From Candidatus Poribacteria bacterium (GTDB lineage: Bacteria > Poribacteria > WGA-4E > WGA-3G), in the NCBI GenBank assembly GCA_964291315.2, contig OZ219753.1:3136001-3200000 (forward strand): 64,000 nucleotides of DNA, in the 5' to 3' direction. The number at the start of each line of letters is the position of its first letter. The first letter of the stretch is position 1. The notes under the pieces were generated by a model. That model was given only the letters and a program-made list of their open reading frames with translations. It was not told the DNA's origin and did not search any database. Both the position numbers and the translations under genes were made by a program. Below, piece after piece: positions 46,548-53,037 of the stretch.

Positions 46548-46865
46548 ATGAAAACGTCTTTGTTTCAAATGCTTGTGATTCTTAGCTTCCTTACCGTAGG
46601 TTTCATGACCGTTACGTCGTTTTTTCAAGAGAGTGGGGCAGATCCAAGCGAGGTTATACATGAGAGACACGAATATTGGAGGCGGTGTATAAACCTACCA
46701 AGTTCACCACAACTCCTGTTTATTCAGAATAAGGTCTATGCGAATGGGTGGCATGAAGGGGATCACTGGAGCAGCGGTGGAAACGACTCTGTGCCGCGCC
46801 ATCTTGTATCCATAATACGCAGAACGGTTTACCATCTCCGTTGGGTACGGTGTGAGGTCGCCTAA
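46548..46865 (+). CDS. Small secreted His/Cys/aromatic-rich protein
   Basis: AAGGAG RBS; signal peptide; 105 aa. Confidence 0.7.
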   Translation: MKTSLFQMLVILSFLTVGFMTVTSFFQESGADPSEVIHERHEYWRRCINLPSSPQLLFIQNKVYANGWHEGDHWSSGGNDSVPRHLVSIIRRTVYHLRWVRCEVA

Positions 46866-46882
46866 ACCTTACCTTTTCTTTT

Positions 46883-46919
46883 TATAGGTAGGACTTGCCA
46901 GAGACAAGTTCTACCTATA
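46883..46919. other. Intergenic hairpin between small protein and partner
   Basis: tataggtaggacttg / caagttctacctata. Confidence 0.65.
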
Positions 46920-46951
46920 TCTAATCTTTAAAATAGGAGGTATTCTTAGAA

Positions 46952-47593
46952 ATGAAACGAGTTTTTTTCACTGCCGGCGCTCTAATTTTTTTAGGCATCG
47001 CTTGGACGTTATTTCTCCGGTGGGATAGGATCCGTTTTGTGGAAAGCCTACCCAAAGCGCCCGTTCGCACTGATATCCAACACGCCACAGAACAGACTCC
47101 TCAAGATCTCATTGCTGAAGACAAAAGCAGCGATGCGCTTAGAGTCCAGAGAACACAAGATGAGTCTGCCCATATAGATGAGGAAACGCCTATAGACACA
47201 ACGGACAGGCCCTTGCATCACAATGAGACTCATTCGTACCGCCCCGAACTCACTTTTCGCCATGAGTCTGAACAAGGCATTGAAACTCTCAAACCAGAGA
47301 ATAAATCCCCAATTTTTGCTCCGGATCTCTCCGCAGAGGAACTCATAGAGATGGACCGTCAGAGCTTCGTAGAAAAATACGGTAATATTCCTGAGATAGA
47401 CATATTTTTCAAATATATGTCTCCTGTTTATGAAGCGTGGGCAGCTGGGGAAAGTCAGTTTACCGTTGACAGAACCAACGAAAAAATACTTGAGTTGAGC
47501 CGCGCACAGATGGTTTTGTATCCGGATAAGCCTTATTTTAGAAAGGAATACGAACGCGCGCTAAAAATATTGAAGGAGCAAGAACAACAATGA
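46952..47593 (+). CDS. N-anchored exported protein (GDIPE-type family)
   Basis: GGAGG RBS; N-terminal TM; ELIEMDRQSFVEKYGNIPEI. Confidence 0.75.
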   Translation: MKRVFFTAGALIFLGIAWTLFLRWDRIRFVESLPKAPVRTDIQHATEQTPQDLIAEDKSSDALRVQRTQDESAHIDEETPIDTTDRPLHHNETHSYRPELTFRHESEQGIETLKPENKSPIFAPDLSAEELIEMDRQSFVEKYGNIPEIDIFFKYMSPVYEAWAAGESQFTVDRTNEKILELSRAQMVLYPDKPYFRKEYERALKILKEQEQQ

Positions 47594-48015
47594 CAGAGCT
47601 CCCGATGTCGCCAGATCGGCTTCTGAAAGCCATGGGCAAAATCTAATTTACTCTCAATGCCACCGGGGTGGGGCCCGCCGCCTACCCCTACAAGTCAACC
47701 GAGTTGAAAAAAACAGACAAACATCCATCCACAGTATGCCAACCATTGCCATTCCCGCTCTCATACGTAATCTTACAAACGGTGAAGAGAGCGTCTTGGT
47801 CTCTGGGACTACTGTCCGTGAAGCGATTGATAGCTTAGAAAGTCGCTACCCGGGTATCAAAGTTCGCTTGTGTGAAGGGGACCGTCTTAAACCCGGTATT
47901 GCCGTCTATATCGACGGTCTTCTCACCCGAGGGTCTCTCCGCGAACCGGTTAATGCGGATGCGGAGATCCATTTCCTTCCTGCCATCAGCGGCGGCGCTG
48001 CCGAATCAACGTGTT
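47589..48015 (+). repeat. Direct repeat R1, copy b
   Basis: Last about 58 nt of the Mo-subunit gene + intergenic + moaD-like gene repeated. Confidence 0.95.
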
Positions 48016-48023
48016 GGAATTAG
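47736..48023 (+). CDS. MoaD/ThiS-family protein, copy b
   Basis: Three substitutions vs copy a (V4I, M10I, D15N) and a 2-aa longer end. Confidence 0.88.
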   Translation: MPTIAIPALIRNLTNGEESVLVSGTTVREAIDSLESRYPGIKVRLCEGDRLKPGIAVYIDGLLTRGSLREPVNADAEIHFLPAISGGAAESTCWN

Positions 48024-48191
48024 TTTTAGGTATCGATGCAAAAAGCGCGCGTATGATCGGCGATTCTGCTTAAAAATGCAGGTAAAACCCCTAAAATTTC
48101 CTGATCACAGCTTTTCTTCGTAAAAAAAACGAATAAATTTGAAAAAAAATGGTTTTAAGGGCAGAATTATGCATTTTTTTGACAAATTAAT

Positions 48192-48274
48192 TTGACAAAC
48201 GCTTTTTGAAGGTGTATAATTAACATTACCTTTCAATAGGAAAGGTGGTTTTGTTCTTTGAAAGTTAAATAGTG
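48192..48274 (+). promoter_or_regulatory. rRNA promoter, boxA-like element and 5' processing-stem strand
   Basis: TTGACA-17-TATAAT (48192-48220); tgttctttgaaagttaaatagtg pairs with cactatctaactttcaaaaaca at about 49967-49988. Confidence 0.85.
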
Positions 48275-48338
48275 AACGTGACGTGCCTATTAAATAGCTT
48301 GTGAGTGCACTTCCATTGAGAAGATGTACTTCAATACT

Positions 48339-50847: not shown

Positions 50848-50929
50848 TAGACACTGTGTCAAAAAGGTTATCCGACTTTTTTTGCAATTGATACGATCAC
50901 TGTCATGTTCAGTGCAACAGGGGAAAATT

Positions 50930-51055
50930 ATGATACGGAAACCTAGCTTCTCGGTTACATTATCAGTATTGCTGCTCACATTTTCTGTCACAGTTAGGTT
51001 AGGGGCATATGGTGTTTTTACCACTGCACATCGAAACCCTCTGTGCTGTAGCTAA
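50930..51055 (+). pseudogene. Signal-peptide gene stub fused to the 16S fragment
   Basis: MIRKPSFSVTLSVLLLTFSV...AHRN runs into rRNA sequence at 51037. Confidence 0.5.
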
Positions 51056-51842
51056 CGCATTAAGTACCCCGCCTGGGGAGTACGGCCGCAAGGTTAAAAC
51101 TCAAGGTAATTGACGGGGGGCCGCACAAGCGGTGGAGCATGTCGCTTAATTCGAAGCAACGCGAAGAACCTTATCCAGGGCTTGACATCGCAGTGACCGC
51201 TATAGAAATATAGTTTTCCTTCGGGACACTATGACAGGTGCTGCATGGCTGTCGTCAGCTCGTGTCGTGAGATGTTGGGTTAAGTCCCGCAACGAGCGCA
51301 ACCCCTGTCTTTAGTTGCCATCAGGTAATGCTGAGCACTCTAGAGAGACCGCTGGTGACGAGCCAGAGGAAGGTGGGGATGACGTCAAGTCCGCATGGCC
51401 CTTATGCCCTGGGCTGCACACGTGCTACAATGGCCGGTACAGAGGGACGCCAAACCGTGAGGTGGAGCAAATCCCAAAAAGCCGGCCCCAGTTCGGATTG
51501 CAGTCTGCAACTCGACTGCATGAAGGTGGAATCGCTAGTAATCGCGAATCAGCAGGTCGCGGTGAATACGTTCCCGGCCCTTGTACACACCGCCCGTCAC
51601 GCCATGGGAGTTGGTAGCATTCAAAGCGGGTGACCCAACCCTTCGGGGAGGGAGCTCTCTAAAGTGAGACTGATGACCGGGGCGAAGTCGTAACAAGGTA
51701 GCCGTAGGGGAACCTGCGGCTGGATCACCTCCTTTCTAAGGAGCATTAGCAGAGGCACTCTCACACAGTGCTTATGTTCAAGCGCTCTTTACCTTACAAG
51801 ACACGCACAAACACTATCTAACTTTCAAAAACATTACCCGCA
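51037..51842 (+). pseudogene. 5'-truncated 16S rRNA copy plus trailer (R2 copy b)
   Basis: Identical to 49192-49997 apart from two differences I found (51305, 51754). Confidence 0.95.
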
Positions 51843-51904
51843 TCGGAACCTAGCTTCACAGACAGTAAACACTTTGTCTACACCCCTTAGGAAAAGGAGA
51901 AAGA

Positions 51905-52261
51905 TTGATGTTTTTCTTCACTCGTATGATGGTTATCCTCTATATGTTGAGTATCATATCATTTGCTTGGATACCGCATGCAGAAGCCGGCTGGGGCGTC
52001 GAGATCGTTACAGATATACATTCGCCGTGTTATGCATCCCACCCCGGGTATGGTAGCTACTATTGCGGCACTAAAACCAATACACGCTATGAGTATGAAA
52101 GTCCACCTGAGCCACCAGCTCATTATTGGTATTATCTTGATCGATATAATAGGCAAATTCCTGTACACGTTGAGCATCCACGAGAACGGCGAAATAAACG
52201 ATTAGTCATTTTTCGGAAAGAAAGCACTTGCATGGAATGCGATTTCGGTGTTGTCTATTAA
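51905..52261 (+). CDS. Small secreted Tyr/His/Cys-rich protein
   Basis: AAGGAG RBS; signal peptide ending AEA; four Cys. Confidence 0.7.
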   Translation: MMFFFTRMMVILYMLSIISFAWIPHAEAGWGVEIVTDIHSPCYASHPGYGSYYCGTKTNTRYEYESPPEPPAHYWYYLDRYNRQIPVHVEHPRERRNKRLVIFRKESTCMECDFGVVY

Positions 52262-52270
52262 CATTTGACT

Positions 52271-52299
52271 CGTGCGGATAGAAGATTTCTATCCGCACG
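52271..52299. other. Perfect 13-bp hairpin between small protein and partner
   Basis: cgtgcggatagaa-gat-ttctatccgcacg. Confidence 0.8.
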
Positions 52300-52317
52300 T
52301 ACTCGATTGGAGTTTTT

Positions 52318-53037
52318 ATGAAATTATGGATGGTTGCAGCAACCCTGTCTATTCTCTTGGCTTGTGGGTTCCTCGTTTATACAAAATGGGAAAAGCAGCA
52401 TTTTTTAGAAGGTATTCCGAAAAATCCGGGACTCGAAAATCTTCCGAAACATCGAGCTGTCGACTCTACGGAACCCTTTAAGACACAAGAGCTAAAAACT
52501 GAACAGAATACACAACGGCATCCGAGATTAATTTTTGAACATACTGAAGACAGAAACTATCAGATAGAATCCCCGGATGAACATGCCGCCCCAAATTGGG
52601 ATGACAACGAATCCCCCGCTGAACAAAGCCAGGACCCCTGGGGAGACATGATCGACAAGGAGCGGATCAAAGCACGTGGGGCTTATATCGAGGATCCGGA
52701 AAACATGGAACTCGGAGAACTTGTTGAGGCGGAACGTCAACAACTCATTGAGCGATTTGGAGATATTCCTGAAGTGAGTCTTTATACTTCTTTGAAACCA
52801 GGATACTTGGTTGGGAAACTAAATCTTGACGAACTGATAACTTTTCTCAAAGCCCAATATTCACTCTTTCCAAGCGAAAGTACTCGGAAGTCAATTGTCT
52901 TACGCGAATGGGAAAAATCGAGGGATGATAGAGGCGTTAGGCATCAAGATCCAACAGAGGCGGATCTAGAATATCTCAAATCCCAGGGTATTACTGTCAG
53001 AAGGACAAGAAACCGTTTAACGATTACCAGTGAATAA
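52318..53037 (+). CDS. N-anchored exported protein (GDIPE-type family), copy a
   Basis: TM; ELVEAERQQLIERFGDIPEV. Confidence 0.8.
   Translation: MKLWMVAATLSILLACGFLVYTKWEKQHFLEGIPKNPGLENLPKHRAVDSTEPFKTQELKTEQNTQRHPRLIFEHTEDRNYQIESPDEHAAPNWDDNESPAEQSQDPWGDMIDKERIKARGAYIEDPENMELGELVEAERQQLIERFGDIPEVSLYTSLKPGYLVGKLNLDELITFLKAQYSLFPSESTRKSIVLREWEKSRDDRGVRHQDPTEADLEYLKSQGITVRRTRNRLTITSE

Follow-up and report, generated by a model that had tools for sequence, protein, structure and literature searches.

A recurring cassette for a putative small exported protein and a membrane-anchored partner in Poribacteria

The Poribacteria, a widespread group of uncultured sponge symbionts, have an envelope biology of which almost nothing is known. 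We analysed a 64-kb stretch of the genome of a Candidatus Poribacteria bacterium (4.4 Mb in four contigs), namely positions 3136001 to 3200000 of contig C4, hereafter the window, in which a two-gene module recurs: the gene for a small, putatively exported protein (S) is followed by a hairpin and then by the gene for a membrane-anchored partner (P). A preliminary description of this DNA had proposed such a module from two occurrences, S1-hairpin-P1 and S2-hairpin-P2, and from a shortened third copy; all three were found where it had placed them, and the S-P pair is real and undescribed.

The cassettes and their two protein families

The first cassette is composed of S1, a 105-aa open reading frame (ORF) that is a member of the S profile (46548–46865, on the + strand like all cassette features below), of hairpin 1 (46883–46919), a 15-pair stem with a 7-nt loop and a partly T-rich tail, and of P1, 213 aa (46952–47593), supported by its ORF, the P profile and the alignment. 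The second is composed of S2 (51905–52261), 118 aa from a TTG start or 117 aa from the alternative ATG at 51908, the form present in the public collection; of hairpin 2 (52271–52299), a 13-pair stem with a 3-nt loop; and of P2, 239 aa (52318–53037); both S2 and P2 are supported by ORF, alignment and structural model. A Shine-Dalgarno-like GGAG precedes the starts of both S1 and S2. The third copy, copy b, begins with a remnant of S2 of about its last 24 codons, with no start and no signal peptide (56086–56157), followed by a sequence-identical copy of hairpin 2 (56167–56195) and by P2b (56214–56933), a second copy of P2 with a 96% identical protein (dN/dS, the ratio of nonsynonymous to synonymous substitution rates, of 0.53 against P2) and without a full S gene. 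The preliminary description had correctly seen that copy b keeps the partner and the tail of the small gene, and had likened it to an orphan immunity gene. Copy b lies within a 1200-nt repeat, however (52190–53389 and 56086–57285, 97.6% identical), and a 1.2-kb segmental duplication with a breakpoint inside S2 is the simpler explanation of its structure.

P1 and P2 share 21% identity (BLASTP E 4e-9), and the two motif blocks by which they had been matched are present in both: RWDRIRFVESLPKAP of P1 corresponds to KWEKQHFLEGIPKNP of P2, and EELIEMDRQSFVEKYGNIPEI to GELVEAERQQLIERFGDIPEV. In P1 an N-terminal anchor and the juxtamembrane block are followed by an acidic linker and, at the C-terminus, a helical 'YGNIPEI' domain, referred to below as the GDIPE domain. 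The same layout holds across the family according to alignment and model: the membrane helix, which starts in the first few residues save in ORFs with in-frame upstream extensions, leads into a conserved Y-x-E-W-x-K-x-x-F-x-x-x-L-P-K-x-P, then come an acidic linker, a conserved DPW element and the helical domain. In some relatives the linker is His-rich, as in HPHSHPHPHEHP and HDHSHDHPHNHGSHEH. The model of P2 comprises an anchor helix (residues 2–31), a disordered part (34–105, predicted local distance difference test score, pLDDT, <50) and a helical domain with a small beta-hairpin (107–239), in which, from residue 131, ten-residue blocks have a mean pLDDT of 90–98. The invariant or near-invariant positions of the alignment are G148, I150, P151, Y21, F29, A179, L183 and P185. 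Since they hold no typical catalytic residue, the P domain is probably a binding module and no enzyme. No cytoplasmic anti-sigma domain was found ahead of the membrane helix in P, nor in S. A second form of the P domain, P', is a lipoprotein with an LSGC lipobox and is often encoded directly after P. P itself was also considered as a lipoprotein on account of the LLAC-G of P2, but a Cys at this place is absent from most aligned members, and the lipoprotein form is the paralogue P'.

The P family counts 20 ORFs in this genome by iterated profile search, 18 of at least 164 aa and two fragments. Against 1.84 billion representatives, the P profile gave 568 matches at E ≤0.001, 305 at ≤1e-10 and 54 at ≤1e-30. 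With P2 as query, matches were obtained in 22 of 41 genomes, our own included (within the genus 19 of 24 genomes had one, and among the order's other genera 2 of 16), and all 77 loci with relatives of the window proteins belong to records of Candidatus or uncultured Poribacteria or to a few 'uncultured bacterium' metagenome-assembled genomes.

The S proteins share a design that was drawn from the small ORFs upstream of P genes in this genome and its relatives, with signal peptide and cleavage site judged by eye. A conserved signal peptide, MK-x-SL-x-Q-x-IAI-x-CIL-x-VGF ... EA|xP (A-x-A and ADP ends also occur), whose hydrophobic core begins after ~7 residues, is followed by a mature part with ~10 residues, a first cysteine (C1), 6–12 residues, a second cysteine (C2), a T-x-T stretch, an H-x(2-3)-H pair and, ~20 residues on, a CxxC near the C-terminus. 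C42 and C109 never vary in an alignment of 19 S sequences, and C54 hardly does; no class III prepilin leader (G|FTLIE) was found at the N-termini of these 19 members. S2 is a canonical member (C42, C54, C109-x-x-C112 and the His pair VHVEH). Its predicted model, at a mean pLDDT of 84.2, is nearly all beta, and the symmetric placement of C42 and C54 on the two strands of the first long beta-hairpin suggests a cross-strand disulfide between them. An S2 orthologue (P0158), 67% identical, retains all four Cys and shares a small contig with a P of 75% identity. S1 belongs to a divergent subfamily that retains only C1 and one C-terminal Cys; its signal peptide is of the Sec type (MKTSLFQMLVILSFLTVGFMTV...GA|DP). 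Its orthologue in the relative G052 is 48% identical (dN/dS 0.48), stands next to a P that is 56% identical to P1, and shares with S1 the strings HEYW-x-RC-x-N-x-P, HEGDHWS and VYHL-x-W-x-RC; a third S1-like sequence is a closer relative. The preliminary description had called the small proteins dissimilar in sequence yet alike in design, and this was borne out, as S1 and S2 show no pairwise similarity (E 4.0) and both fall in one profile family.

These orthologues show the coding-type conservation that would be expected of genes. For S, dN/dS is 0.22–0.48 in the more distant pairs and 0.63–0.98 in three closer pairs, against 0.21–0.54 for P; in the two closest pairs it reaches 0.76 and 0.98 for S versus 0.21 and 0.35 for P. 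From these values, the S genes are coding but under weaker constraint than P. S-type ORFs are annotated elsewhere as hypothetical proteins of Candidatus Poribacteria.

The S-P spacers fold unusually well. The minimum free energy is −26.4 kcal/mol (z −5.8 versus shuffles) for the spacer with hairpin 1 and −24.4 kcal/mol (z −5.7) for that with hairpin 2. Among 33 distinct S-P pairs, three with spacers <20 nt were not folded, and 28 of the remaining 30 spacers have z ≤−2.0, with stems of 10–19 pairs that are unrelated in sequence between loci. Of the S-P spacers of 50–150 nt, 22 in number, 15 have an unbroken stem of at least 10 pairs, compared to 9% of 592 ordinary same-strand spacers taken from this genome. 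A clean T-run is absent from most of these hairpins. Hairpins also stand behind pilin genes, genes for precursors of ribosomally synthesised and post-translationally modified peptides, and similar genes, and by analogy we read those of the cassettes as probable partial terminators or 3' stabilisers that would set S above P. That the two hairpins of the window are copies of a dispersed repeat is ruled out, as apart from copy b neither has further occurrences in the genome: the sequence of hairpin 1 is present once, and that of hairpin 2 only at S2-P2 and in copy b.

Neither protein could be assigned to a known family. Scans of S1, S2, P1, P2 and all alignment members against Pfam, NCBIfam and PADLOC returned no family, the only hits being chance-level matches of one member each to PapR (E 0.0039) and PEPcase_2 (E 0.0087), and searches of the PDB by sequence with the P and S profiles gave nothing better than E 0.19, reached by the P profile. 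Fold searches with the model of whole P2 (Foldseek best E 0.39; VIA-align best Z 5.4, root mean square deviation 4.2 over 60 aligned residues) and with that of S2 (best E 0.63; best Z 3.1, 4.0 over 54) found no convincing relative, which is no proof of a new fold in either case. The ESM Atlas held no usable match for residues 100–239 of P2, and for S2 only unnamed clusters scoring ≤0.86. A narrow full-text search of the literature on Poribacteria found no description of an S-P pair.

Linkage, co-divergence and fuller cassettes in relatives

We then considered how closely the two genes are associated. In this genome, all four ORFs matching the S profile lie 57–148 nt upstream of a P-family ORF. 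Run by itself on 41 genomes of the genus, the S profile matched 34 times, in 20 of them, and a P-family ORF lies downstream on the same strand in 26 of the 30 S loci fetched, with gaps from −6 to 433 nt. The four S loci without P are weaker matches with mature parts that look different, and may share only the signal peptide with S. In a census of 6-kb flanks, which covers 28 of the 30 S matches outside this genome (two on short contigs were excluded), P is directly downstream of S in 23 loci. Seen from the S side, the link to P is thus close to obligate.

S and P also diverge in step, with S the faster of the two: where P proteins are 82–90% identical, their S proteins are 68–85% identical, and at 50–60% identity for P, S is at 30–48%. 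The preliminary description had suggested co-folding cognate pairs. For S2 (residues 29–118) with P2 (22–239), the interface score ipSAE is 0.45 (0.45, 0.38 and 0.45 in three runs), as compared to 0.00 for each of three controls; at least 15% of contacts agree between the runs, with a partner pLDDT of at least 54. Note that 116 of 157 solved complexes reach the pass mark, as do 2 of 215 mismatched pairs, and that only 18 of the 157 solved complexes, together with both passing mismatched pairs, pass at ≤0.60.

In relatives, the pair is also found in fuller cassettes. A gene for a sigma-54 activator lies directly upstream of S in 5 of the 28 census loci and a sigma-70-family gene in 7, so that either type of regulator is found in 12; the activators combine AAA+ and helix-turn-helix domains, with no receiver domain in two complete ORFs. 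A sigma-54-type site, TGGCACG-N4-TTGCT, is matched at 10–12 of 12 positions in 8 of the 33 S-P pairs, within a search range that opens 330 nt ahead of the listed ORF start and closes 130 nt past it. Twelve of the 28 loci have an STT3-like gene no more than 3 kb downstream, on the same strand, the usual order being S-P-(P')-STT3. These STT3-like proteins exceed the cut-off of Pfam PF02516, and one from our own genome matches human STT3A in the PDB in its N-terminal domain (E 1.6e-10) and the C-terminal domain of yeast Stt3 (E 3.5e-4). The strict WWDYG motif was not found in three STT3-like ORFs of this genome, which carry the variant A-D/N/T-W-x-Y-G-S in its place. Three of the four STT3-like ORFs of this genome are directly downstream of a P-family gene. 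PF02516 matches occur in all 26 genomes of the genus searched, our own included, and 25 of 30 STT3 loci sampled regardless of P are of this type. The S1-P1 orthologue of G052 is followed by an STT3-like gene, whereas P1 in the window is followed by a 455-nt direct repeat instead. Pfam scans of the flanks covered part of them, in all 39 proteins (24 + 15).

The fullest S/P locus of our genome is a tandem P-S-P-P-S-P-STT3 array within C4:950000–967000 (L121, 955500–964500). Its first P, of 380 aa, has two GDIPE-type domains behind an S-like signal peptide.

Readings of the S-P pair

Taking linkage, co-divergence and co-folding together, we favour, with middling confidence, a reading in which S and P belong together as cognate envelope proteins, so far Poribacteria-specific, one an exported ligand or substrate and the other its tethered non-catalytic partner. 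S would be exported via Sec and fold in the periplasm into a small beta-rich protein with a C1-C2 cross-strand disulfide and an H-x(2-3)-H ... CxxC cluster near its C-terminus, and the stem-loop right after the S stop codon would end or protect most transcripts, leaving S in excess of P. P would be held in the inner membrane by its single N-terminal helix and carry, on a long flexible linker that is acidic and in some relatives His-rich, a helical non-catalytic domain that binds S, so that P would serve as a tethered receptor or adaptor. Where the cassette is complete, P, often with its lipoprotein paralogue P', would couple S to the STT3-type glycosyltransferase encoded next to it, and the cassette would be switched on by its own sigma-54 activator or sigma-70-family factor. 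The cassettes of the window would be stripped-down copies (S-hairpin-P), moved and duplicated by rearrangements around the 16S rRNA gene.

Several observations weigh against this picture. Looked at from the P side, S lies directly upstream of only 25 of 162 distinct P-domain ORFs and directly downstream of 12, and 139 of the 162 are counted as having no adjacent S; P thus occurs mostly without an adjacent S and can work without it, and other P subfamilies come after unrelated secreted proteins of 170–300 aa. S is dispensable in some strains, since a close relative (L044) keeps a 42-aa remnant before P, copy b has lost its S, and contigs of two other sequencing runs are without the 5' part of S2. 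The tool grades the S2-P2 co-fold as 'weak support'. S1 has a dicodon score of −0.005, which 17% of spurious ORFs reach, and S2, at 0.153, a value that 4% of them reach, ranks below the 1st percentile of real gene pieces. No conserved N-x-S/T sequon was found in S; 15 of 32 sequences have any, at scattered positions. Neither cassette of the window has a regulator or an STT3 gene, the fuller picture coming from relatives, and no sigma-54-like site was found before S1 or S2 (best 5 of 12 positions). Finally, P is present within the ~1.3 kb fetched upstream in only 9 of the 25 STT3 loci of this type. The preliminary description had singled out coding-type conservation of the small ORFs and their constant presence upstream of GDIPE homologues as informative: the former was found (for S2 and S1 alike) and S is almost always followed by P, whereas most GDIPE homologues are without S, a mixed outcome that on balance favours the module.

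A further step, which we regard as doubtful though worth stating, is that the S-hairpin-P(-P')-STT3 cassettes, each under a sigma-54 activator or sigma factor of its own, might be a new bacterial protein-modification or display module, in which STT3 and the tethered adaptors P and P' act on or with S. The point of contact with STT3, AglB and PglB systems is that STT3-family genes stand directly behind P-family genes, both in relatives and at other places in our own genome; on the other side, the window cassettes have no adjacent STT3 gene, D/N-W-x-Y-G-S takes the place of WWDYG, and S has no conserved sequon. Extended sequons, D/E-x-N-x-S/T, number 2 in 2708 S residues. If S is a substrate, the chemistry would thus not be classical fixed-site N-glycosylation. 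The eukaryotic oligosaccharyltransferase has tethered non-catalytic accessory subunits, and bacterial PglB is not known to require accessory proteins. If the module exists, P and P' would be akin to such subunits and S would be a rapidly diversifying protein at the symbiont surface, where it could meet, for example, the sponge host or competitors; the window copies would then be cassettes cut loose from their transferase.

The type IV pilin cassettes of Pseudomonas aeruginosa (pilA-tfpO, tfpW-X, tfpY, tfpZ) combine allele-specific accessory genes with an oligosaccharyltransferase and resemble the S-P cassettes in several ways: the gene of a variable, presumably abundant small exported protein is followed by a strong stem-loop and a co-varying accessory gene, with a protein glycosyltransferase in part of the cassettes and sigma-54 with an activator driving the first gene in some. 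They differ in that the signal of S is Sec-type and not a class III prepilin leader, the transferase is STT3-type and not PglL/TfpO-type, P has no known family, and no pilus assembly genes were seen in the scanned S-P flanks.

We next weighed the alternatives to a ligand or substrate with its tethered partner. That S and P are merely co-regulated neighbours without contact, two independent envelope proteins of one regulon, P being an accessory of an STT3-type enzyme or envelope structure and S one of several alternative cargo or structural proteins, would account for the prevalence of P without S, for the other secreted proteins that take the S position in other P subfamilies and for the grade of the S2-P2 co-fold. 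We nevertheless consider it unlikely, because S is almost never without P, the two diverge in step, and the co-fold score stands clear of all three controls.

Effector/immunity had been offered in the preliminary description alongside ligand/receptor and substrate/chaperone. S would then be a polymorphic, Sec-exported and disulfide-stabilised toxin, bacteriocin-like and antibacterial or directed at the host, P its immunity protein, and S-less P genes orphan immunity. As in bacteriocin and polymorphic-toxin pairs, a small variable secreted protein precedes a membrane-anchored partner, cassettes are divergent and lone partners occur. S is small, fast-evolving and Cys-framed, its signal peptide being conserved and its mature part variable, and its dN/dS in the two closest pairs exceeds that of P; P lies directly downstream (a matter of architecture only) and co-diverges, there are several cassettes per genome, and P genes such as P2b and that behind the remnant in L044 have no S. 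However, the Sec signal would take S into the producer's own periplasm, and the hairpin would presumably yield P below S, the reverse of what an immunity protein covering a periplasmic toxin would need. No toxin domain or fold was recognised in S by Pfam, NCBIfam, PADLOC, PDB or fold searches, and genes for type VI secretion, contact-dependent inhibition or ABC exporters, that is, for a dedicated exporter, are not among the 39 scanned flanking proteins. The recurring neighbours are instead sigma factors, sigma-54 activators and STT3 enzymes, which together with the hairpin between the genes sets the cassettes apart from toxin/immunity pairs, and P domains frequently occur in lipoproteins, too, and after unrelated secreted proteins of larger size. 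With a hairpin expected to favour S, the Sec signal, the scanned flanks devoid of delivery machinery and the regulators and STT3 genes nearby in relatives, the evidence points rather to a ligand or substrate and its tethered partner than to effector/immunity, which is less likely and, on its own, improbable.

A periplasmic metal-handling pair is likewise not a likely explanation. Here S would bind Zn, Cu or Ni through its His pair and CxxC, and P would be a tethered metallochaperone or sensor, loosely parallel to the ZraP and CnrX systems. The conserved H-x(2-3)-H with CxxC ~20 residues on, the His-rich P linkers of relatives quoted above and the sigma-type regulators upstream of 12 of the 28 loci are in keeping with it, sigma-54 or ECF-type (extracytoplasmic function) control being common for envelope metal responses, and P resembles ZraP/CpxP/Spy and CnrX proteins in being anchored, all-helical and periplasmic, with sigma-54 or ECF-like neighbours and some His-rich stretches. 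Against this, the P domain has no invariant His, Cys or Met, the linkers of P1 and P2 hold only few His, and S1 and its orthologues are without C2 and one Cys of the CxxC, a motif that in the periplasm may be a plain disulfide. Neither an efflux pump nor a metal transporter was seen in the scanned flanks. P also differs from these proteins in having no LTxxQ-type motif, conserved metal ligands or cytoplasmic anti-sigma domain, and none of them is among the sequence or fold matches listed for P.

Least of all do we credit the idea that the small ORFs are chance frames in a structured 5' leader of P, which would fit their dicodon scores and the failure of single-sequence searches to find an S paralogue but is largely refuted by the signal peptide and Cys and His framework conserved across 19 aligned members, the in-frame orthologues of S2 and S1, the dN/dS at deeper divergence, the S2 model, the GGAG sites and the annotation of such ORFs elsewhere, comparative evidence that we take to outweigh the dicodon scores.

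The analysis thus defines two protein families without a database match, in a conserved and separately regulated cassette that has in its hairpin a putative device for setting the ratio of their expression and is tied to STT3-type oligosaccharyltransferases, enzymes that are rare in bacteria and have been little studied there. Should S be a substrate and P an adaptor, the cassette would offer a bacterial model for glycosylation assisted by accessory subunits; if instead the two form an effector pair, they would amount to a polymorphic secreted system new for a symbiont. In both cases S and P are small, expressible experimental targets.

Rearranged surroundings of the window cassettes

Both cassettes lie in rearranged DNA. 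S1-P1, together with a gene fragment, is bracketed by the 455-nt direct repeat (45334–45784 and 47589–48043, 95%), which duplicates the last codons of a molybdenum hydroxylase large subunit and a whole MoaD/ThiS-like gene. A complete 16S rRNA gene follows at 48339–49890, and its 3' 0.8 kb is present again 1.1 kb on, at 51037–51842 (806 nt, 99.75%); S2 begins directly behind this second copy. Five sequencing runs were found, none of them listed as RNA. A contig of sequencing run X1 spans the junction between the 16S copy and S2 without difference (51813–52225). Contigs of runs X1 and X2 also join 51842 to 53389, omitting 1546 nt with S2, P2 and an 87-aa ORF, the shorter side being 26 nt, and runs X3 and X4 give no cover over 51857–52117. 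The S2-P2 cassette may be present or absent between strains.

The tRNA-Ile(GAT) gene, which usually comes after 16S, is found at 58279–58354, 8.4 kb away and beyond an island of genes for lineage-specific membrane-anchored proteins, and the window has no 23S rRNA gene. An element of ~58 nt occurs three times (48192–48220, 53456–53484 and 58192–58220) with a perfect or near-perfect TTGACA-17-TATAAT, preceding the 16S gene, a 282-aa ORF at 53672 and tRNA-Ile, respectively; it looks like an rRNA-operon promoter duplicated during the rearrangements.

Other ORFs around the cassettes belong to families of their own. The 137-aa ORF at 45910–46323, which ends in ...NLTTCWGELK, is one of 30 matching ORFs in the genome, itself included, and the 13 others listed are 911–1007 aa long. 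A 257-aa membrane-anchored protein (50074–50847) represents a separate paralogous family with 15 matches, most of them at C4:1675–1688 kb. The 144-aa ORF at 55637–56071 carries a C-terminal element, YG-x-x-EGLR-x-L-x-x-x-DPE-x-A, that recurs in 18 ORFs genome-wide and also forms the tail of some P-family proteins. After P2 and P2b lie, respectively, the 87-aa ORF and a 180-aa ORF (57063–57605), which have common N-termini and diverge at the repeat boundary. Further from the cassettes, 26054–27150 and 27162–28276 are tandem paralogous genes with 76% identity, and 58478–63128 holds three consecutive ABC-2/DUF3526 permease genes, of which the first and third are 66–73% similar at the DNA level.

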